Source: an uncultured Actinomycetes bacterium (GTDB lineage Bacteria; Actinomycetota; Geothermincolia; Fen-727; JACVIW01). From it: a stretch of DNA of 64,000 nucleotides. Below, one piece after another: positions 191 to 34,387 of the stretch. The stretch lies in contig CAKZLU010000041.1 in the NCBI GenBank assembly GCA_937127245.1, positions 9,824-73,823 on the forward strand, given 5' to 3'. The notes beneath the pieces were generated by a model that was not told the origin of the DNA, did not search any database, and saw only the letters and a list, made by a program, of their open reading frames with translations. Position 1 is the first letter of the stretch. Each line of letters begins with the position of its first letter. Both the position numbers and the translations under genes were made by a program.

Positions 191-3100
191 ATGTCAGTTG
201 TCAGGGTGCGATATCCTTTGTCTGGGCTGAAGAGATTTGCAATACTCGCATTATCGAGTCTGGTTTTCTTGTTGCTTTGCCTTGCTTTACTCCCGAACGA
301 AGCGACCGCCGCTTTGGGTGCTTGGGATGATGCCAAGATAAAGTGGATGATATATCCAACCTTAGGCAATCCGGCGATTGTCAAAAGTGGAGGATATTTC
401 GACCTTGAGCTTGATCCCAGAAGGGGGGTGTATTATCAAAACCCCTTACCTGTGCTCGAAGAAGTAAGCGTGAATGTTGTTTCCAGTTGTGATAAGTACC
501 CCTACTCCGGGAAGCTGCCCGTTGAGTCATTTGAGGCTGGATATAGCAAACGCTGGCCTGAGTTGAAGCCCGAGACGTCGATCGACAAAAGGATTTACCT
601 CATAAGAGTGCGGGTACCCTATTACGTACCACGCGATCTCTATGATGTTTCGGTTAAAGCAACATTAAAAGGTGGAAAGACGCTGAGCGATTCTCAGCCC
701 CATTCTCTTATGGTTGTTGAATCTTTCAAGAAGCGTTTCTCGTTTGTTCAGTTGTCGGATATACACGTTTTCGGTCCGGAAGTGAGCTATCCAGGTTCCA
801 ATCAGAAAGAAAGGAGCGGAAGACCCCGGTACGAGGGAGACCCCGGTCCTAACCGAAAAGGAGCAATTTATTATAGAAAGGCTATAAATCAGATAAATAT
901 CATGAAACCGGATTTCTGCATTTTTACCGGCGATTATATTTTTGGTCAAAAGTATTTCACTAAAGACCAGGGAGAGCCCTGGGGCACCACCACGGAATAT
1001 GAGTATGAGATGCTCTGGTTTTACGAGGAAACGCTCAAGCTGGAGGTTCCCGTCTTCATGGTTTTGGGAAATCACGACGGATATTACGAAAGCAGTTACG
1101 GGGCGGGCGAGGACTGGCAGGAAAACTGGAAAAGGATGTTTGGTCCTCTCTACTATACCTTCGATTACGGTGACGCAAGATTCTTCGTTTTGAACTCCCT
1201 CGACTGGGCTATGACCGATAGGAGCCTCTTCGATTGGTTAGGCATAATACTCCAACCTCGGAAATATAAAGGTCAGCTAAGAGGAGGAGGGGACCCCTGG
1301 GAGAGCGGAATCAGTGAGGAACGTTTTGCGCAGATAGATGAAAAGAAATTTACCGGGCAACTTGCATGGTTGAGGGATGAACTCAAGGCAAGCAAGGATA
1401 AAGCAATCAGAATATGCGCCATGCATCATGACCCCTTCAAAGATAACGGCAGCGGTTCCATGTGGGAGGATGATTTTTTGGGAATGGGTGGAGGTCAGGG
1501 AAGGCTTGCGGTGATGAAGCTTATGAGAGACTACAATGTGGCTCTCGAAATCAGCGGGCACGATCACTCAGACTATGTGGGTTCTATGAAATGGTCTGAC
1601 GGAAAAGGAAACGTTCTCTTTGTTAACACCACCTCAACATCTTTCCAGTCTGACGGGAACTCAGATGTTTATCCAGGATACAGGAGGATCTGGATAAACG
1701 GAGACAAGGTGGAGAGTTTCAACTACCTCGACCCGAAGTTTTCGTATCCTTTCTACAAGGGAACCAACGTGGGCGGCACTACTAATCTCGGATCTTTGGT
1801 AACCCCTGCGATTGAAACAAGCTGGAGTCCCGGTGCTCCTGGAAATTATAAAGACGTGACCTGCACCGTGGTAAACAATCTATCAAAATCGCTACCGGGC
1901 GCTTATCTTGAGTACCCCATGCCGCACCTGTCTAATGGATATTACTACAAAGTAAGTAACGGTCGATTAGGCGATATTTACGACGTTACCGTATCAGGCG
2001 TGAAGAAAAGGGTCTATCAGGTTTATGCGGATGTTGACGAGGTTGGGACCAAGAGTGTGAGGCTGTCTGTTAGTTCAAGCCCCGACAAAAAAGCGCCTAC
2101 GGCTTCAATCTTGATAAATGACGGTGCGAAAACGACCACTTCCAGGAGTGTGAATTTGTCTTTGAAAGCGCGCGACGGCGAGTCCGGTTTGATGGGAATG
2201 ATGATCTCAAATTACCCTGATTTTAGGGGCGCCAAGTGGGAGCGATTCCAGACAAGGAAAGAGTGGAAACTGGCTTCCGGTGAATCGGGCAGGCGGACTG
2301 TTTACGCAAGATTTGCCGATTGCGCGATGCCCTCCAACGTAACCGAGGTCAAGGCCACAATAATCTACGTTAGTACGTCAGGAAACGAAGGACCTTCCTC
2401 AAACTGGTACTTTGCCGAAGGGTGCACAAGGGATGGATTTGAAGAGTGGCTGACAATCCAGAACCCGTTTGAGGACGTTTGCGATGTTGACATAACTTTC
2501 ATGCTGGAAAACGGGGAAAATATACCCCTTAGCCTTACCTTGGATGGCACGAGCCGTTACACACTGAACGTTAATCAAGTGGTCGGTCCGGAAAGGGATG
2601 TGTCTTTGGTCTTAGAATCGAGCCTTCCCGTATACGCTGAAAGACCATTGTATTTCAACTATCAAAAAATGTGGCGGGGTGGAGACGTTGTCGTTGGCGC
2701 AAGGAAGCCGCTTACCAGGTGGTATTTTGCTGAAGGGTGCACGAGGGAAATTCCGGGCTCAGCCAATTTTCACACATGGTTTTGCGTTCTCAACCCACAG
2801 CCTAACCAAGCAAAGGTCAAGCTAACTTATATGCTTTCAACGGGTGAGACGAGGGAGACAAATTGCGTAATTGCGCCGAAATCAAGAAAGACAATTTGCG
2901 CCAACTGGGAAATCGGACCAGGACATGATTTTTCAACCGTTGTGGAAGCTTCGCTTCCCGTTGTTTGCGAACGCCCCGTATATTTTGACTACGGGGGCGT
3001 AATTTTCGGCGGTCACAACGTAATGGGGATCAAAGATTCCTCAAGGGAATGGTACTTCGCGGAGGGAACGACTAACTATCGGTTCGATAATTATTTGTGC

Positions 3101-3658
3101 ATCCAGAATCCTTCAGATTATGAGGCGCAGGTAAAGATTGAGTACAGGCTAAAAACCGGTGACAGGAAGCTCAGAGAGATTTCGGTTTCCCCGAAGAGCA
3201 GATACACCCATTTTCTGAACAGCGACCTCGCGCCGGGTGAGGATTTCTCGCTCGCCGTTTTTTCAGATGTCCCGGTTCTTGCGGAACGCCCCGTTTATTT
3301 CATCTATGGTCCATCCCTGGACGGCGGGCACTGCGTTACGGGAATAAATATGCCCAGGACCGAGTTCTTTTTTGCTGAAGGATGCACGCGTGACAATTTT
3401 GAGGAATGGTTGTGTATTCAGAATGCCACCGAGCGCAAAGCGAAGGTGAAGATCGACTATATGCTTGGAAATTCTGAGACGAGAACGCAGGAAATTGAGG
3501 TAAATCCCTATTCTCGATACACGGTTAGCGTTAACGCCTTTCTGGGCGGTGAATATGATGTGTCAGTAAGAGTAAGATCCGACCGTGACCTTGTGGTTGA
3601 AAGACCGATATATTTTCTCTATGGCGCAAAATGGGCAGGGGGTCATTGCGCCATTTAA
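191..3658 (+). CDS. Secreted multidomain protein: N-terminal signal peptide, calcineurin-like metallophosphoesterase domain, and four C-terminal tandem ~105-aa repeats
   Basis: GGAGG RBS at 175-179, 11 nt before the ATG. N-terminus MSVVRVRYPLSGLKRFAILALSSLVFLLLCLALLPNEATA-ALG looks like a signal peptide with an AxA cleavage site. Metallophosphoesterase motifs are LSDIHVFG (D-x-H), FTGDYIFG (GD), VLGNHDG (GNHD), AMHHDP and ISGHDHSDY (GHxH). The C-terminal third is four repeats, each starting W/F-YFAEG-C/T-T and ending ERP-V/L/I-YF. Confidence 0.85.
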   Translation: MSVVRVRYPLSGLKRFAILALSSLVFLLLCLALLPNEATAALGAWDDAKIKWMIYPTLGNPAIVKSGGYFDLELDPRRGVYYQNPLPVLEEVSVNVVSSCDKYPYSGKLPVESFEAGYSKRWPELKPETSIDKRIYLIRVRVPYYVPRDLYDVSVKATLKGGKTLSDSQPHSLMVVESFKKRFSFVQLSDIHVFGPEVSYPGSNQKERSGRPRYEGDPGPNRKGAIYYRKAINQINIMKPDFCIFTGDYIFGQKYFTKDQGEPWGTTTEYEYEMLWFYEETLKLEVPVFMVLGNHDGYYESSYGAGEDWQENWKRMFGPLYYTFDYGDARFFVLNSLDWAMTDRSLFDWLGIILQPRKYKGQLRGGGDPWESGISEERFAQIDEKKFTGQLAWLRDELKASKDKAIRICAMHHDPFKDNGSGSMWEDDFLGMGGGQGRLAVMKLMRDYNVALEISGHDHSDYVGSMKWSDGKGNVLFVNTTSTSFQSDGNSDVYPGYRRIWINGDKVESFNYLDPKFSYPFYKGTNVGGTTNLGSLVTPAIETSWSPGAPGNYKDVTCTVVNNLSKSLPGAYLEYPMPHLSNGYYYKVSNGRLGDIYDVTVSGVKKRVYQVYADVDEVGTKSVRLSVSSSPDKKAPTASILINDGAKTTTSRSVNLSLKARDGESGLMGMMISNYPDFRGAKWERFQTRKEWKLASGESGRRTVYARFADCAMPSNVTEVKATIIYVSTSGNEGPSSNWYFAEGCTRDGFEEWLTIQNPFEDVCDVDITFMLENGENIPLSLTLDGTSRYTLNVNQVVGPERDVSLVLESSLPVYAERPLYFNYQKMWRGGDVVVGARKPLTRWYFAEGCTREIPGSANFHTWFCVLNPQPNQAKVKLTYMLSTGETRETNCVIAPKSRKTICANWEIGPGHDFSTVVEASLPVVCERPVYFDYGGVIFGGHNVMGIKDSSREWYFAEGTTNYRFDNYLCIQNPSDYEAQVKIEYRLKTGDRKLREISVSPKSRYTHFLNSDLAPGEDFSLAVFSDVPVLAERPVYFIYGPSLDGGHCVTGINMPRTEFFFAEGCTRDNFEEWLCIQNATERKAKVKIDYMLGNSETRTQEIEVNPYSRYTVSVNAFLGGEYDVSVRVRSDRDLVVERPIYFLYGAKWAGGHCAI
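2404..3655 (+). repeat. Four in-frame tandem coding repeats of ~315-327 nt (~105-109 aa) inside the 191-3658 CDS
   Basis: Repeat units start near nt 2404 (NWYFAEGCTRDGFEEWLTIQNP), 2718 (RWYFAEGCTREIPG...FCVLNP), 3045 (EWYFAEGTTNYRFDNYLCIQNP) and 3362 (EFFFAEGCTRDNFEEWLCIQNA). Each unit has a conserved C-x-Q/L-N-P, then K-V/I-K-I/L-x-Y-M/R-L, then ERPxYF-x-YG. Confidence 0.7.
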
Positions 3659-3808
3659 ATTGCGCAGTTTAAACTTTTTCAATGCCCCGTTTGAATCTCC
3701 CCTTCGCATGAGGAAAAGAAGTGTTCGGGAATAGAGAAAGCATTGGAATCTTTTTGATTCATTAGTTGTTTCTTCGAGTCAGCTATCTATAGTGATATTC
3801 TATAAACT

Positions 3809-4240
3809 ATGAGCAGTGAAAAAGAATCGCCATATTTCCTTTTTGAGCAAGGAAAGAAATTACTTGAAGAGGGTCATCCCGCTCAGGCTGCAATGGTTTT
3901 GGAGAAAGCGAGGGAGGATTTCCCCAAAAAAGGGTCTATTCTCGAGGTTTTAGGCAGGGCATATTACACTTACGGCAGATACGACGAGGCTGCCTTACGT
4001 TTTGAAGAGGCTGTTGAGGTTGACCCCACAAATGACTACGCCCACTACTGCCTGGGTCGGTGTTATCTTAAACTCAAGAGAAAAAGTGAGGCCGGTAAGC
4101 ATTTCAAGCTTGCCTGGAACCTGAAACCGTGTGAGATGTACAGACAGGAAGCCCTGCGATTCGGAGCGGTCTTTAACCGACCGTACCCGGGCCCAGCGGA
4201 AACGGAGTTTGACCAGAATCGTGACCCGGAGAATTTTTGA
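3809..4240 (+). CDS. Tetratricopeptide (TPR) repeat protein
   Basis: TPR-like helices are visible in AAMVLEKAREDFPKKGSILEVLGRAYYTYGRYDEAALRFEEAVEVDPTNDYAHYCLGRCYLKLKRKSEA. The stop overlaps the next gene's start (ATGA). Confidence 0.65.
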   Translation: MSSEKESPYFLFEQGKKLLEEGHPAQAAMVLEKAREDFPKKGSILEVLGRAYYTYGRYDEAALRFEEAVEVDPTNDYAHYCLGRCYLKLKRKSEAGKHFKLAWNLKPCEMYRQEALRFGAVFNRPYPGPAETEFDQNRDPENF

Positions 4241-23309: not shown

Positions 23310-24317
23310 GTGTATGAATTGGAAAGCGGGACTGGAAGGGTTGTGAGCGGGTACCGACCGAGCGGCAGGCTCCACCTCGGTCACTATCACGGCAACCTGA
23401 AGGTTATGACAAACTTACAAAAGATGCGGGATTGCTATTTCTTCGTTGCTGACTGGCATGCTTTGACGACTGAATACAGAGATACCTCTATGCTTTGGAC
23501 TTACACCCAAGAGATGGTTCTTGACTGGCTTGCCGCGGGTCTGGACCCAGGAGTTTGCACCATTTACCGACAATCTGATATTCAAGCCATACCCGAATTG
23601 ATGCTTTACTTCTCAATGATAATATCGCTCGGGGAACTTGAAAGATGCCCAACTTACAAACAGCAGCTCAGAGAGCTCGACGAACGCGTTGTGAACACAT
23701 ACGGATTTCTTGGGTATCCAGTTTTAATGGCCGCCGACATCCTAATCGTGAAGGGAGAGGAAGTTCCGGTCGGGGAGGACCAGATTCCGCATCTGGAACT
23801 GACAAGGGAAATTGCAAGAAAGTTCAACATGCTGTATGGTTCTATTTTTCCCGAGCCCAGACCGATTCTCTCCAAAGTACCGAGGATACCAGGTACGGAC
23901 GGCAGGAAGATGTCAAAAAGTTACGGCAACTATATCGATTTGATGGACGAGGAGGAGGTAATCCGCCAGAAGGTCAGGAAGATGATAACAGACCCGGCGC
24001 GGGTCAGACGCAGCGATAAGGGTCATCCCGAGGTCTGCTCGGTCTTTGACCTGTATCGGGCTTACCCGAACATGGTATCTTCTGAGGAAAGAGCTCGGGA
24101 ATGCAGGATGGCAAAAATAGGCTGCACTGCTTGCAAAGATGAGATTGCAAAAGTGATCGCCGATGACCTTTCCCCATTCAAAGAAAGGAGAAAAACTCTA
24201 TATAGCGATGAATCGGTTGTAGCACAAATACTATCGGACGGCGCTAAAAAGGTGAAGCTGATCGCGAGCGAGACTCTCGAAGAGGTCAGAAGATCGGTCA
24301 AGATAGCGAGGGTTTGA
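23310..24317 (+). CDS. trpS: Tryptophan--tRNA ligase
   Basis: VSGYRPSGRLHLGHYHGNL is the HIGH region and KMSKS is present. GTG start with an AGAGAGG SD. Confidence 0.95.
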   Translation: MYELESGTGRVVSGYRPSGRLHLGHYHGNLKVMTNLQKMRDCYFFVADWHALTTEYRDTSMLWTYTQEMVLDWLAAGLDPGVCTIYRQSDIQAIPELMLYFSMIISLGELERCPTYKQQLRELDERVVNTYGFLGYPVLMAADILIVKGEEVPVGEDQIPHLELTREIARKFNMLYGSIFPEPRPILSKVPRIPGTDGRKMSKSYGNYIDLMDEEEVIRQKVRKMITDPARVRRSDKGHPEVCSVFDLYRAYPNMVSSEERARECRMAKIGCTACKDEIAKVIADDLSPFKERRKTLYSDESVVAQILSDGAKKVKLIASETLEEVRRSVKIARV

Positions 24318-29473: not shown

Positions 29474-30772
29474 ATGAAATGCTATGTCAGAAACGTCGAA
29501 TCTCTCAGCGGCAAGGTTACTGTGCCTTTCGATAAGTCAATCTCACATCGGGCCGCGATCCTTTCAGCTTTGAGCGAAGGGAAGTGCATAGTGCGCGGTT
29601 ACAGCCAGTCACAAGATTGCGCGAGCACGCTCAGATGCATTCAGAAACTCGGCGTTAAAGTGTACAGTAAAGATGAAACCCTCGAAATTGTTGGTGCGGG
29701 TGCCAAAGGATTTTCAGCAAAAGGCATAACCCTCGATGCGGGGAACTCCGCAACTACAATGAGGCTTCTGTCGGGCGCCCTTGCTTCTATGGAAGGGGTC
29801 GAAATTACTTTTACCGGTGATGAAAGTCTTCTTCGTCGCCCAATGATGAGGATCATAGAACCGCTCAATTTGATGGGCGCGAAGATAATCGCATCGGGTG
29901 ATTCGGGTATCCCTCCGTTGAAGGTCAAAGGAGCGAAGCTTAAAGGAATAGATTATAGCCCCCCGGTCGCGAGCGCTCAAGTGAAATCAGCGATACTGAT
30001 TGCTGGTTTGAGGGCGGAGGGCAAAACTGTCGTCAGGGAGAAGGTGAAGACCAGGGACCATACCGAAAGAATGCTTCGGCATATGGGTGCAAAAATCATT
30101 GTCGATGGAAACAAGGTCACTGTAGAACCTTCTGTGTTGAAACCCGCAGAAATTGAGGTTCCTGGGGATTTTTCATCGGCCGCTTTTTTCATCTCTGCAG
30201 CGCTTATCACGCCCGGGTCTGAAATTGAGATATCTGACGTTGGACTTAACCCCACAAGGACCGGATTTCTCTCGCTTGTGGAGAGAATGAACGGAAGATG
30301 TACTTTGGAAATCTCTAATCCTGAGTATTTTGAGCCTACGGGCAGTATAAAAGCGTCGCACTCAAACTTGAAAGCTGTCGAAATAGGACCTGAGGATGTC
30401 GCAAAATCGATTGACGAGATACCACTTCTCGCGTTGCTTGCTTCTCAGGCAGAGGGTACAACAAGAATATGGGGAGCCGGCGAACTCAGACACAAGGAGT
30501 CAGACAGAATCAGCGTTACTGTGGAAGGGCTCAAGCGGATGGGGGCTCGAATCGAGGAGACCCCGGATGGAATGCTGATCCGGGGACCATCCAAGCTTAA
30601 CGGATGCGAGGTTTTCCCGCATAAAGACCACAGGCTTGCTATGATGTTTGCGGTGGCCGCTCTGGTGGCAAAAGGGACAACAGTCATAAATGACTGGGAG
30701 TGGACACGGGTTTCATTTCCGGATTTCGAATCCAGATTTTCCCCGCTGGGAGTTGAGGTGGAGACACTTTGA
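29474..30772 (+). CDS. aroA: 3-phosphoshikimate 1-carboxyvinyltransferase (EPSP synthase)
   Basis: KSISHRAAILSALSEGKCIVRG, LDAGNSATTMRLL and DHRLAMMFAVAAL are all EPSPS signatures. Confidence 0.95.
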   Translation: MKCYVRNVESLSGKVTVPFDKSISHRAAILSALSEGKCIVRGYSQSQDCASTLRCIQKLGVKVYSKDETLEIVGAGAKGFSAKGITLDAGNSATTMRLLSGALASMEGVEITFTGDESLLRRPMMRIIEPLNLMGAKIIASGDSGIPPLKVKGAKLKGIDYSPPVASAQVKSAILIAGLRAEGKTVVREKVKTRDHTERMLRHMGAKIIVDGNKVTVEPSVLKPAEIEVPGDFSSAAFFISAALITPGSEIEISDVGLNPTRTGFLSLVERMNGRCTLEISNPEYFEPTGSIKASHSNLKAVEIGPEDVAKSIDEIPLLALLASQAEGTTRIWGAGELRHKESDRISVTVEGLKRMGARIEETPDGMLIRGPSKLNGCEVFPHKDHRLAMMFAVAALVAKGTTVINDWEWTRVSFPDFESRFSPLGVEVETL

Positions 30773-31455
30773 GTAAGGGGTTTGTCATAACCATAGATGG
30801 TCCGGCGGCATCTGGAAAAAGTACGGTCGCGCGGCGTCTTGCATACGAGATGGGATTGCAGCTTTTGGACAGCGGCGCGATGTACAGGGCGGTGACGCTC
30901 CTTACTTTGGAGCGAGGAATTGGCATATCAGAGATAGAAAAACTCGCGTCCGTCGCCGAGCTGATTGGCAACAATTTAAGAATAGTAATGGAAAAAGGGG
31001 ACCGCGTGAGAATACTTTTCGGCTCAAGAGACATCACCGAAGAAATCAGAAGCGCCGATGTTGGGAAGTTCGTATCACCTGTCTCTGCCGTTCCGGAAGT
31101 GAGAGCCCAGATGGTCAGGGCACAGCGTAATATGGCTTTAGCTGGGGGAGTAGTTGCTGAGGGTCGGGATATGGGTTCAACCGTCTTTCCGGATGCGTGC
31201 GTGAAAATATTCTTGGACGCACTGAAGCAAGAAAGGGTCCGGAGAAGATACATTGAGCTTATAGAGAAAAGCAAAGATGTAACGATTGAGGAGGTCGAGA
31301 AAGAAATTGAGATGAGAGACTCAATCGACTCCTCGAGAAGCGCAAGTCCTTTGAGAATACCCGATGGCGCGATAATCATAGATACGACGAACATGACAGT
31401 AGAAGAGGTGATATCCTCGATAAAGCAAATATGTGCTAACAAAGGCTGCGGATGA
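30769..31455 (+). CDS. cmk: Cytidylate kinase
   Basis: ITIDGPAASGKSTVARRLA is the P-loop. TTG start overlapping the aroA stop, with a GAGGTGGA SD. Confidence 0.9.
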   Translation: MSKGFVITIDGPAASGKSTVARRLAYEMGLQLLDSGAMYRAVTLLTLERGIGISEIEKLASVAELIGNNLRIVMEKGDRVRILFGSRDITEEIRSADVGKFVSPVSAVPEVRAQMVRAQRNMALAGGVVAEGRDMGSTVFPDACVKIFLDALKQERVRRRYIELIEKSKDVTIEEVEKEIEMRDSIDSSRSASPLRIPDGAIIIDTTNMTVEEVISSIKQICANKGCG

Positions 31456-31476
31456 GCAAAAAACCGCAGTTTTGAT
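31446..31476 (+). terminator. Hairpin ctgcgg-N12-ccgcag + TTTTG at the cmk stop
   Basis: 6-bp stem seen in the sequence, followed by a short T-run. Confidence 0.4.
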
Positions 31477-31528
31477 GCCTTACCTTGAGGCATTAAGGTT
31501 AAAATTGCGGAATTCCAAATTTTGTACT

Positions 31529-31557
31529 TGAAAATCGTTTAATCTTATCGTATATTC
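31529..31557 (+). promoter_or_regulatory. Candidate sigma70-type promoter (TTGAAA-17-TATATT) for the trp leader/trpB2 transcript
   Basis: Hexamers with 17-nt spacing, about 10 nt upstream of the leader-peptide ATG. Confidence 0.3.
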
Positions 31558-31566
31558 TTTTTCACT

Positions 31567-31629
31567 ATGACCAAGAAATTGTTGGCAGGAAAGAAAATAC
31601 ACGATGTGTTCGGTTGGTGGTTCCCCTGA
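31567..31629 (+). CDS. Candidate Trp leader peptide (20 aa, MTKKLLAGKKIHDVFGWWFP) with tandem Trp codons
   Basis: ATG at 31567, TGG TGG at 31615-31620, TGA at 31627-31629. It sits about 130 nt upstream of trpB2 and is followed by alternative hairpins and terminators. The SD is weak. Confidence 0.5.
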   Translation: MTKKLLAGKKIHDVFGWWFP

Positions 31630-31658
31630 AGGGGGTTCCACAGGCTTTTGTTTTTTAA

Positions 31659-31699
31659 AGGCCGTGGGGCTCCTTAAAAGGATCGTCTGCGGCCTTTTT
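31659..31699 (+). terminator. Attenuator-type terminator hairpin aggccg ... cggcct + TTTTT
   Basis: 6-bp GC stem with an internally structured loop, followed by a T5 run. Its 5' arm overlaps a possible antiterminator pairing ccacaggc / gccgtgg. Confidence 0.45.
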
Positions 31700-31708
31700 A
31701 TATAAGAA

Positions 31709-31740
31709 GACCCGGTCGCGGACCGGGTCTTTAGTTTAAT
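31709..31740 (+). terminator. Perfect 9-bp hairpin gacccggtc-gcg-gaccgggtc followed by TTTAGTTTAAT
   Basis: Perfect inverted repeat seen directly, with a U-rich tail. It lies 20 nt upstream of the trpB2 SD. Confidence 0.5.
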
Positions 31741-31756
31741 AAAGGACAAGGAAAGG

Positions 31757-33076
31757 GTGATGGAAATGGCAGAGACGAGAGTCCCAACCAGAGTAATCCT
31801 CGAGGAGAAGGAGATGCCGGAGGCGTGGTACAACATTTGCGCGGATCTACCAGTACCTCTTCCGCCGCCCCTACATCCAGCCACAAAGGAGCCGTGCCGT
31901 CCCGAAGACCTTGCCCCGCTGTTTCCCATGGCGCTCATTGAGCAGGAGGTGAGCACTGAGAGGTTTATCGAGATTCCGGAAGAGGTAAAAGCGGTTTATC
32001 GGCTTTACCGACCCACGCCTCTTCAAAGAGCGCTAAGACTTGAGAAGGCTCTGGAGACTCCGGCCAAAATCTTCTACAAAAACGAGGCACTAAGCCCTGC
32101 CGGAAGTCATAAACCAAACACAGCGATAGCTCAGGCTTACTTCAACAAAAAAGAAGGCGTCAAGAAACTCACCACGGAAACCGGCGCGGGGCAATGGGGA
32201 AGCGCCCTTGCTCTCGGATGCAAGCTCTTCGGCCTGGAACTTGACGTATTCATGGTGAAAGTCAGCTACCATCAAAAGCCTTACAGAAGAACACTCATGG
32301 AGACGTGGGGAGCAAACGTTTACGCAAGTCCGACTGACAGAACTGAAGCAGGACGCGCGGTTCTAAGAGATGATCCCGATAGCCCTGGTAGTTTGGGGAT
32401 AGCTATCAGCGAGGCTGTCGAAGCCGCGATGGGGCGTGAGGATACGAAGTATTCGCTCGGAAGCGTTCTCAATCACGTTTGTCTGCACCAAACAATCGTC
32501 GGTCTTGAGGCAAATAAGCAGATGGAGAAGATAGGAGAATACCCTGATATAATCATAGGCTGCGTTGGCGGCGGAAGTAATTTCTCCGGAATCGTTTTCC
32601 CCTTCATGGCTGACAAGTTCGGCGGCAAGGATTTGAGGGCGATCGCGGTCGAGCCCGTTTCCTGTCCCACTCTCACGGAAGGGAAGTATGAGTACGATTT
32701 CGGAGATCAGGCTGAAACCACTCCGCTCATAAAGATGTACACTCTCGGTCACAAGTTCATTCCTTCGCCCATTCACGCGGGTGGGTTGCGCTATCATGGG
32801 GATGCCCCGATTCTTTCCCTTCTCGTTAAGGAGGGATATATCGAGGCGGTCGCTTACCCGCAGACCAAAATATTCGAGGCTGCCGTTCAGTTTGCGCGGA
32901 TAGAAGGTTTGGTGGTGGCGCCTGAGACTGCTCACGCGGTCAAGTGTGCGATTGACGAGGCGATAAAGTGCCGTGAATCGGGTGAAAGCAAGACTATTTT
33001 GTTCAACTTGAGCGGCCACGGATTGCTTGACCTTGGCGGTTATCAGGAGTTTCTTGACGGAAAATTGATTGACTGA
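31757..33076 (+). CDS. trpB: Tryptophan synthase beta-chain-like protein, TrpB2 type (stand-alone)
   Basis: [43 protein letters not shown] (PLP-lysine region) and GGGSNFSG. Length (439 aa) and the insertions are typical of TrpB2. The start is 31757 (GTG), or ATG 31760/31766. Confidence 0.9.
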
Positions 33077-33105
33077 TAATCAGAATAATCCATAGAGCCT
33101 TAACT

Positions 33106-33152
33106 CGGCACCCGACGCTTATATTTGCGCGCCCGGGTGCCGATATTTATAT
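33106..33152 (+). terminator. Hairpin cggcacccg-N19-cgggtgccg after trpB2
   Basis: 9-bp stem, followed by AT-rich atatttatatt. Confidence 0.35.
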
Positions 33153-33266
33153 TGAATGACTTGTGCCATCGCTCGTTTTTGACTGATTTGAAAAGCGGGC
33201 TTGGATAATGATTTCTTTTCGTCATAGCTATCGGTTAAAATTAATGTATACGGCAAAGAGAAACGT

Positions 33267-34028
33267 ATGAAACGTTGCCCTAATTGCGATGCAGAAAATT
33301 CAGACGATGCGACTTTTTGCAATCTGTGTTTGAGCGTTCTTGGATTTGAAAGCCCTGAATACGCAATTGTGGATAAAGGAAACGAGGGTTTTCTCACCGA
33401 GTACCCCTCAAGCTTCAAGATCGAGGCCGCACCGAATAAGCAACCTCAAACGAGAGCCCCATCGGAGGCTTACCATTTGGGGGGGTGGTCTCCATCTGAA
33501 TTTCATCCTCACGGAAATTTGAGGCCCCGTGGTCTGGCGGTAAGTTCGCCTGATGGTGCGCTCGCTTCCAAGACTATCTCGCAAGGTCGCTACGTGCCGA
33601 GAATCAGTGCTGAAAAGGTAATCCGCGATTGTGCGATCACCGCCCTTATCGCGACTGCGGTGTCAGTATTACTTGAATGGGTATTTTCCGCTTTGGGCTT
33701 TGGTGCTCTTCTGCGAGGTGAAATAACGCTCTCTCGTGTTTATTATCTTATTCCATTGATAATACCCGCTTTTGTATGCGGTTACGTTTCAGGCTACAGG
33801 ATTGAAAGATACGGTTGGCTATTCGGTGCCGTCACTGTTCTCATATGGTCATTGGTCTTCAGGCCTCTTGTTTATGGTGTTATAAGATGGATGGTCACAG
33901 GCGGTTTTGACATTATGGTTTCACTGTCCACAGCGAACCTCGTTCTCATAATCTGTTTGTTTTTGCCCACAGGCATTATAGCTGGTTGGCTCGGAGAGAA
34001 GAGAGCCACCACGGGTTTGGGTTTGTAA
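33267..34028 (+). CDS. Zinc-ribbon-containing membrane protein (hypothetical)
   Basis: The N-terminus has CPNCDAENSDDATFCNLC (CxxC...CxxC). The C-terminal half has 4-5 hydrophobic helices. Confidence 0.55.
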   Translation: MKRCPNCDAENSDDATFCNLCLSVLGFESPEYAIVDKGNEGFLTEYPSSFKIEAAPNKQPQTRAPSEAYHLGGWSPSEFHPHGNLRPRGLAVSSPDGALASKTISQGRYVPRISAEKVIRDCAITALIATAVSVLLEWVFSALGFGALLRGEITLSRVYYLIPLIIPAFVCGYVSGYRIERYGWLFGAVTVLIWSLVFRPLVYGVIRWMVTGGFDIMVSLSTANLVLIICLFLPTGIIAGWLGEKRATTGLGL

Positions 34029-34123: not shown

Positions 34124-34387
34124 ATGCTTAGGATCCTTTCGATAGCTTTATTCTTTGCAAGAGAACCTCTCGTTCCATGGAGCAGCAAACTCACCTATGT
34201 GATGTTTGCCGGTCTGCTTATTGCCGTAATTTCGGGGACCTGGACAGGGGCTGTTGCGGCTCGCAAGAAGAGAAATTACCAGGCGTGGTTCATAATAGGT
34301 TTCTTCTTACCGATTATCGGTATACTAATAATCCAAGCGCTTCCAGCCTTGTCAGGAGAAAATGAAAAGAAGCAGAAAACGGACTGA
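34124..34387 (+). CDS. Small two-TM membrane protein (hypothetical)
   Basis: 87-aa ORF with two clear hydrophobic helices. Weak evidence. Confidence 0.4.
   Translation: MLRILSIALFFAREPLVPWSSKLTYVMFAGLLIAVISGTWTGAVAARKKRNYQAWFIIGFFLPIIGILIIQALPALSGENEKKQKTD

Follow-up and report, generated by a model that had tools for sequence, protein, structure and literature searches.

The leader-peptide attenuator of transcription is a textbook regulatory mechanism and is already known. In the Johnston/Roth model of the his leader of Salmonella and Escherichia coli, stems A:B, C:D and E:F alternate with B:C and D:E. The role of stand-alone TrpB2, a homologue of the tryptophan synthase β-chain, is debated, the alternatives being indole salvage and O-phosphoserine-dependent synthesis of tryptophan (Trp). 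The closest described relatives of the element presented here are the actinobacterial trp attenuators of Streptomyces and Corynebacterium, a comparative analysis of which also predicts an attenuator before the ‘trpB2A' operon of C. diphtheriae (PMC1262725), and attenuators based on leaderless upstream open reading frames (uORFs) that encode polycysteine have been described in mycobacteria (bioRxiv 10.1101/834739). Here we report on the leader of a stand-alone trpB2 gene in an uncultured Geothermincolia-like actinobacterium of hot springs (contig CAKZLU010000041.1), within an analysed stretch of 64 kb of DNA that is called the window throughout and to which all coordinates refer.

In this leader, ribosomes that translate a leader peptide very probably attenuate transcription in response to charged tRNA-Trp and so control trpB2 as a monocistronic unit. 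An earlier reading of the same DNA, referred to below as the original prediction, had proposed a trp attenuator at this position; it was essentially right, as every sequence-level feature of the trpL type is present and is conserved in relatives. What appears to be new is the choice of a stand-alone TrpB2 as the target, the near-leaderless start of the leader peptide and the placing of two tandem terminators under one sensor. A search of the literature in which TrpB2 was combined with attenuators, leader peptides or the T-box led to PMC1262725 only, in which this element is not described, older comparative-genomics papers in subscription journals being outside the scope of that search. The loci considered come from uncultured organisms, and the attenuator reading is built on sequence and comparison, by which the parts of the leader, their conservation and their mutually exclusive pairings were established.

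Results

The leader and its proposed target gene

The gene that the leader would control is trpB2 (31760-33076; this and all features below are on the + strand unless stated otherwise), which from its called ATG at 31760 encodes a TrpB2-type, TrpB-like, pyridoxal phosphate (PLP)-dependent tryptophan synthase β homologue of 438 amino acids (NCBIfam PRK12391, 732 bits; TIGR01415, 671 bits). It is a Trp-synthesis gene, and it lies directly downstream of the leader on the same strand. An NCBIfam search of the window gave the gene order aroH (chorismate mutase), 3-deoxy-D-arabino-heptulosonate 7-phosphate (DAHP) synthase, tyrA (prephenate dehydrogenase), aroA (5-enolpyruvylshikimate 3-phosphate (EPSP) synthase), cmk and the TrpB-like PLP enzyme, confirming the context that had been proposed for the leader. 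For comparison we used the cmk-trpB2 spacers of ten loci that encode TrpB2 proteins 74-91% identical to that of the window (L001, L163, L002, L164, L167, L169, L170, L171, L173 and L174); together with the window these form alignment A1, which comprises 11 loci from Geothermincolia-like genomes.

Between cmk and trpB2 lies a sigma-70-type promoter-like site (31528-31556; 10 of 12 matches), in which TTGAAA (31528-31533) is separated by a 17-nt spacer from TATATT (31551-31556). The site is the top sigma-70-like match in a scan of 30500-33500, and the original prediction had recognized it, although one base out of position. Ten nucleotides beyond the −10 box begins a uORF of 20 codons (MTKKLLAGKKIHDVFGWWFP-stop, 31567-31629; ATG at 31567, TGA at 31627-31629), whose product ends in GWWFP and whose only Trp codons are the tandem UGG UGG at codons 17 and 18 of the 20 (31615-31620). 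The arrangement recurs in the other leaders, a −35 TTGNNN and a −10 box being found at a fixed distance from the uORF start in 11/11 loci, with 8-10 nt between the end of the −10 box and the AUG or GUG. Judged from this spacing, the uORF transcript would begin 0-4 nt ahead of the start codon. Because no Shine-Dalgarno sequence precedes the uORF and its start lies 8-10 nt past the −10 box, its translation probably begins on a near-leaderless message; initiation of the leaderless kind is frequent among Actinobacteria.

Alternative pairings in the leader RNA

The fold of 31560-31760 has a z-score of −4.3 against dinucleotide shuffles, and the RNA can be divided into six regions. Region 1 (31612-31627), which contains the Trp codons and UUCCCCU, is the 5′ arm of the anti-antiterminator hairpin 1:2, while region 2 (GGGGGUUCCACAGGCU, 31631-31646) can take either region 1 or region 3 as its partner. 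Region 3 (GGCCGUGGGGCUCC, 31660-31673) pairs with region 2 in antiterminator 1 or with region 4 in hairpin 3:4. Region 4 (UCUGCGGCC), together with the U5 at 31695-31699 (31686-31699 in all), provides the 3′ arm of terminator 1 and can alternatively pair with region 5. The latter (GACCCGGUCGCGGA, 31709-31722) forms the 5′ arm and loop of terminator 2, its segment 31714-31722 being able to pair with region 4 as antiterminator 2, and region 6 (GACCGGGUC) with the U-rich tail UUUAGUUU (31721-31737) supplies the 3′ arm of terminator 2.

In the alignment of the 11 leaders, helix 1:2 joins 31617-31627 to 31631-31641; helix 2:3 joins 31632-31645 to 31661-31673 through 13 bp with one bulged A; helix 3:4 joins 31660-31668 to 31686-31694 and is followed by the U5; helix 4:5 joins 31686-31694 to 31714-31722 through 9 bp, the UCUGCGGCC of region 4 being complementary to the GGUCGCGGA of region 5; and helix 5:6 joins 31709-31717 to 31721-31729. 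The last of these is a perfect 9-bp stem, GACCCGGUC-GCG-GACCGGGUC (31709-31729, GCG loop at 31718-31720), that runs into UUUAGUUU. Hairpins 1:2, 3:4 and 5:6 alternate with helices 2:3 and 4:5 in mutually exclusive pairings, as antiterminator 2:3 takes the 5′ arm of hairpin 3:4 and helix 4:5 takes the top of hairpin 5:6. In 11/11 loci the loop of hairpin 1 holds the stop codon, and region 1 starts inside the UGG codons.

Much of this had been anticipated. The hairpin spanning the Trp codons and the stop is present as 1:2, and the terminator stem with its T5 is present as 3:4. An antiterminator that shares an arm with the terminator is also there, but at 13 bp it is far longer than had been described. 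The proposed four-region layout caught the trpL-type logic but not the extent of the element, which has six regions and in this respect resembles a his leader. The second 9-bp hairpin is indeed a perfect stem with a U-rich tail; rather than the separate oddity for which it had been taken, it is a terminator-like hairpin kept in 11/11 loci and linked to the rest through the 4:5 pairing.

From these parts we infer a mechanism that comprises the transcription start, translation of the uORF, ribosome stalling, both termination events and a 4:5 relay. Transcription would start at the conserved promoter a few nucleotides before the uORF AUG, and a ribosome would load on the near-leaderless 20-codon leader. 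When Trp is ample, the ribosome would reach the UGA in the loop of hairpin 1:2, cover region 2 and then depart; hairpins 1:2, 3:4 and 5:6 would form, and RNA polymerase would stop at the U5 past 3:4, any polymerase that escapes being stopped at the U-rich tail past 5:6. When Trp is scarce, the ribosome would stall at UGG UGG and keep region 1 single-stranded, regions 2 and 3 would pair in the 13-bp helix, and the freed region 4 would pair with nascent region 5 and dissolve the top of the second terminator, so that one stalling event would open both terminators and trpB2 would be transcribed. The general geometry of ribosome footprints fits these positions: a ribosome with UGG in its A site should cover the RNA up to about 31625-31630, which is the whole of region 1 and none of region 2, and a ribosome at the UGA should cover the G-run of region 2.

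Folded alone, the helices are of similar stability, with energies of −9 to −27 kcal/mol at 37 °C; in the window helices 1:2, 2:3, 3:4, 4:5 and 5:6 have −17.7, −26.7, −19.3, −14.2 and −17.7 kcal/mol, respectively. When the helices are enforced in the free window RNA, the terminated combination (1:2, 3:4 and 5:6; −61.3 kcal/mol) is favoured over the antiterminated combination (2:3 and 4:5; −54.9 kcal/mol) by 6.4 kcal/mol. With region 1 held single-stranded, as a stand-in for a ribosome stalled on UGG, the antiterminated state (−51.6 kcal/mol) is instead favoured over 3:4 and 5:6 (−43.7 kcal/mol) by 7.9 kcal/mol. The folding check suggested for 31560-31760 thus came out as expected, the alternative helices being mutually exclusive and masking of region 1 flipping the preferred state in the window. 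Masking shifts the balance toward the antiterminated state in 11/11 loci, but the sign changes in only three of them, and so transcription order must do the rest. The trp leader of E. coli likewise relies on transcription order.

Conservation of the leader

The same leader anatomy is found in 10/10 independent orthologous loci, and this recurrence argues that it is more than a chance feature. The uORF has 17-20 codons in all ten relatives and a divergent N-terminus, whereas WW or WWW stands one to three codons ahead of the stop in each of the 11 loci, the C-terminal patterns being G-W-W-(F/S)-P or (N/S/D)-W-W-W-x-x(-x). A divergent N-terminus combined with a fixed Trp end is the usual mark of a regulatory leader, as opposed to a small protein with a function of its own. 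The uORF of the original prediction, with its sole tandem TGG pair, is therefore not confined to the window; WW or WWW and the accompanying hairpins occur in the orthologous intergenic regions of all ten relatives, which is where that prediction had advised looking for them.

RNAalifold, unprompted, returned hairpins 1:2, 3:4 and 5:6 from the alignment. For the pairs of the terminated state, 92% of the alignment cells are standard pairs, compared with 43-58% when the partner is slid; six of these pairs change on both sides, and the covariation score was reached by 0 of 500 shuffles. For the pairs of the antiterminated state (2:3 and 4:5), 95% of the cells are paired, compared with 38-52% with the partner slid. 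In several columns the changes track both pairing partners; the base at 31668, for example, has 31637 opposite it in helix 2:3 and 31686 in helix 3:4. The covariance model R1, which describes the leader and gives the orthologous leaders 94-115 bits, finds one site in the window; the search revealed no second copy in the 64 kb, the other window match being the reverse strand of the same site, and nothing comparable elsewhere. A metagenome scan with TrpB2 yielded no relative closer than 73% and no further leader of this family. A protein encoded on contig DAINBG010000010.1 (assembly GCA_036733065.1) has the same sequence as the TrpB2 of the window, whose closest relatives are in metagenome-assembled genomes (MAGs) of uncultured Actinomycetota named Candidatus Geohydrothermomicrobium (91%) and Geothermincolia (74%).

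Three neighbouring cases are recorded here in their own right. At L166 (about 2394-2468; TrpB2 77% identical), the leader is missing the sequence from the Trp codons to the end of region 3, the junction lying at a repeated GGUGGGACUC, and cmk is also missing upstream; either recombination between regions 1 and 3 deleted this stretch in nature or the gap arose in assembly. At L039 (about 3640-4000; Candidatus Geothermocultor), a trpB2 that is 70% identical lies directly 3′ of a trpC-like open reading frame (ORF), identified by eye, and would be an operon gene, not a stand-alone attenuator-controlled one. Between the second terminator and the trpB2 Shine-Dalgarno sequence, the motif CGGACC is present in L002, L169, L170, L171 and L173, and in the window as GGAC (about 31744-31749); it repeats the GCGGACC of hairpin 5:6.

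The second hairpin

At least 3 consecutive U come immediately after hairpin 5:6 in 11/11 loci, but after hairpin 3:4 in just five (the window, L001, L163, L002 and L167). Across the family, 5:6 would be the constant terminator and 3:4 primarily a relay element, which in the clade of the window would additionally have gained its U5 tail. Within region 5, GGUCGCGG hardly varies, both where it belongs to the stem of hairpin 5:6 and where part of it falls in the loop, and its constancy in the latter case argues for a second pairing partner. The second hairpin may thus be coupled to the Trp sensor by the 4:5 pairing, a relay supported only by the constrained energies, transcription order, conservation and analogues. 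The analogues are L121 (906-1042), a metagenome locus with a uORF ending NWWWWRNISLLS that contains WWWW, and L024 (3613-3748), from a Spirochaetota MAG, with WWW; their sequences are unrelated to the window leader. In both, two hairpins with U tails stand in tandem, and the 4:5 pairing equals or exceeds 5:6 in strength.

The principal alternative is that the leader is a classical four-region Trp attenuator (1:2, 2:3, 3:4 and U5), with a second hairpin that either serves as an independent back-up terminator free of regulation or is a relic of evolution, and with a 4:5 complementarity devoid of function. In its favour, the 3:4 of the window has a better U-run (UUUUU) than the 5:6, hairpin 5:6 stays intact in the unconstrained fold of the masked RNA, and the covariation of 4:5 is not significant. 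It should be emphasized, however, that an unregulated terminator downstream would defeat antitermination, and that in 6/11 loci hairpin 5:6 alone directly precedes a U run and there must be the regulated terminator. Furthermore, the loop sequence CGCGG is conserved, helix 4:5 is 97% paired across the loci, and the same cross-pairing occurs in the unrelated leaders of L121 and L024. The four-region reading is thus unlikely. The coupled arrangement may extend further, as a ‘double-lock' attenuator in which one leader-peptide sensor, acting through a chain of five overlapping helices, opens two tandem intrinsic terminators, and which would recur with unrelated sequences in at least three trpB2 lineages (Geothermincolia, L024 and L121); we regard this generalization as plausible, if somewhat short of probable. 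If it is true, TrpB2 would be an enzyme that the cell keeps firmly shut down and induces in Trp starvation alone, in keeping with a role in indole salvage.

Alternative readings

Several observations weigh against the leader-peptide attenuator as proposed here. The uORF is without a Shine-Dalgarno sequence, and its translation would depend on leaderless initiation. The consensus terminator scan listed neither of the + strand hairpins, 5:6 being listed on the minus strand only, and in the window the U-tail of 5:6 (UUUAGUUU) is interrupted. Even with region 1 masked, the RNA favours the terminated fold in 8/11 loci, and the unconstrained equilibrium fold of the masked window RNA keeps 5:6 and does not form 4:5; the 4:5 relay must therefore depend on co-transcriptional order. 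The covariation of 2:3 and 4:5 did not rise above the shuffle control, as the positions are mostly invariant or vary on one side only (G-C to G-U); such one-sided variation is expected of bases that serve two partners, but it is weaker evidence than two-sided change. Finally, two related lineages, L175 (Anoxymicrobium) and L039, do not have the leader.

It is also conceivable, though improbable, that the peptide or the terminated leader RNA works in trans in addition to its cis role, as reported for rnTrpL and peTrpL of Sinorhizobium (PMC6614838, PMC7298713). Under Trp sufficiency a stable RNA of about 135-170 nt, rich in structure, would be set free; the peptide, however, is not conserved outside the part that is constrained by RNA pairing, and no target emerged, no search aimed at one having been made.

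That the hairpins are plain terminators of the aro-cmk operon and the WW micro-ORF a chance frame might be suggested by their position downstream of cmk and by the uORF's want of a Shine-Dalgarno sequence, but this is highly improbable given that cmk has hairpins of its own (31442-31494), that a conserved promoter lies between cmk and the uORF, that WW or WWW is kept in 11/11 loci despite divergence of the peptide, and that the antiterminator helix 2:3 would be pointless in a plain terminator. Equally improbable is a trans factor that senses the leader in place of the translating ribosome, be it uncharged tRNA as in a T-box, a small molecule as in a riboswitch, or a protein resembling TRAP. 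Another kind of Trp control at the RNA level does exist before trpB2, in the form of a T-box with a UGG specifier at L157 (see below). In the window, however, an Rfam scan of 31000-32200 with E up to 10 returned noise only, with no match to Trp_leader (RF00513), T-box (RF00230) or any other leader or riboswitch family. The T-box motif (GGGUGGNACCGCG) is absent from the window leader, the L157 T-box at 99 bits serving as positive control, and the longest run of TRAP-type (G/U)AG repeats in the leader is 1 triplet, below the shuffle mean of 1.6, compared with the nine to eleven triplets spaced 2-3 nt of the Bacillus-type criterion. Moreover, translation alone accounts for the Trp codons and for a stop that is fixed in the hairpin loop.

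Probable Trp control before trpB2 in other lineages

Of 144 trpB2 loci drawn from many phyla, 22 are preceded by a uORF with clustered Trp codons; the reverse complement gave 3 such cases and shuffled sequences about 5.4. Spirochaetota and Deferribacteres trpB2 loci carry WWW-rich uORFs with terminators. In seven Ignavibacteriota/Bacteroidota-like loci (L015, L023, L026, L108, L113, L132 and L152), a 26-codon leader peptide, ...QQQAW(R/W/L)WRW(I/M/L)(K/M)SA(L/C)PL, lies about 150-235 nt before trpB2 and is followed by a hairpin, GUGGAAACGC...GCGUUCCCAC, and U6; these leaders seem to form a Trp attenuator family of their own before trpB2. At L157, the region 37-307 upstream of trpB2 contains a T-box leader (RF00230, 99 bits) with the specifier loop GAA-UGG-A, and L040 and L050, two loci of Dehalococcoid MAGs, have this leader too. 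In this gene family, then, Trp control is also exerted by another RNA mechanism. The Trp-rich uORFs in L040, L050 and L157 were rejected as chance frames, as the leaders of these loci are T-boxes. Trp control of TrpB2 genes, as read from these leaders, extends beyond the lineage of the window.

Flanking genes

The fold of 31430-31566 contains two hairpins at or after the cmk stop codon (31442-31494), the first of which (31442-31473) ends in UUUU. They are weak terminator-like elements, which the consensus terminator scan did not list, and they probably end the upstream aro-cmk transcript. On the 3′ side of trpB2 is a terminator-like hairpin, CGGCACCCG...CGGGUGCCG, with an AU-rich tail (33106-33150; hairpin 33106-33142), which suggests that the leader and trpB2 are a monocistronic unit. 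Bounded by the cmk hairpins on one side and by the hairpin after trpB2 on the other, the leader and its gene seem to make up a one-gene unit of their own.

The order tyrA-aroA-cmk-spacer-trpB2-zinc-ribbon protein-polA is kept in the relatives that were fetched. A zinc-ribbon/DUF7577-like protein without an NCBIfam match and a small ORF of ~85 amino acids (33267-34028 and 34124-34387 in the window) are present also in the orthologous loci and lie invariably between trpB2 and polA in this lineage. The gene trpS (tryptophan--tRNA ligase, 23310-24317), 7 kb upstream and in the same orientation, is preceded by a 70-nt gap with no UGG run and no Trp leader, and so stands outside this control. Elsewhere in the window, an ORF of 1155 amino acids (191-3658) has no NCBIfam match at E <= 1e-40.

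Discussion

The conserved sensor of charged tRNA-Trp that appears to precede trpB2 offers independent, regulatory evidence on the role of TrpB2, as it indicates that the cell treats TrpB2 as a Trp-producing enzyme for times of Trp starvation. The analogues before trpB2 in other phyla and the T-box with a UGG specifier suggest that TrpB2 belongs widely to Trp regulons. This study also extends leader-peptide attenuation to an uncultured, deep-branching actinobacterial class. With its one sensor and two tandem terminators joined by a pairing relay, the leader would be a compact natural case of such coupling and a potential low-leak genetic switch.

Similar to the trpL-type leaders of Streptomyces and Corynebacterium, which belong to the same phylum and likewise act on Trp biosynthesis, the window leader has a short ORF, theirs carrying two or three UGG codons near its end, and a GC-rich terminator and an antiterminator that share GGCC/GCC blocks. 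In contrast with these leaders, it precedes a stand-alone TrpB2 gene beside aro genes and cmk, not a trpE-led operon, it has six regions and two U-tailed hairpins where they have four regions and one terminator, and its uORF is without a Shine-Dalgarno sequence; the comparison is one of architecture, not of sequence. The proteobacterial trp operon leader in Rfam (Trp_leader, RF00513) shares the mechanism class and the sensed amino acid but is of a different sequence family and architecture.

The near-leaderless start recalls the mycobacterial polycysteine uORFs, which are also actinobacterial, begin at the transcript's 5′ end or directly beside it, are without a Shine-Dalgarno sequence and have consecutive codons for the sensed residue. 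These elements sense Cys, however, and reportedly act mainly through translation and operon polarity, not through an intrinsic-terminator switch; the leaderless start in the window, for its part, is deduced from promoter spacing. In its chain of pairings the window leader most resembles the his leader, as both have six segments along which a ribosome stalled on the first (segment A in his) shifts, or in the window would shift, the pairing register down to the terminator hairpin. The his leader differs in that it is proteobacterial, senses His through seven His codons and has a single terminator, its middle hairpin C:D lacking a U-run, whereas the corresponding hairpin 3:4 of the window carries the U5 of a terminator in its own right.

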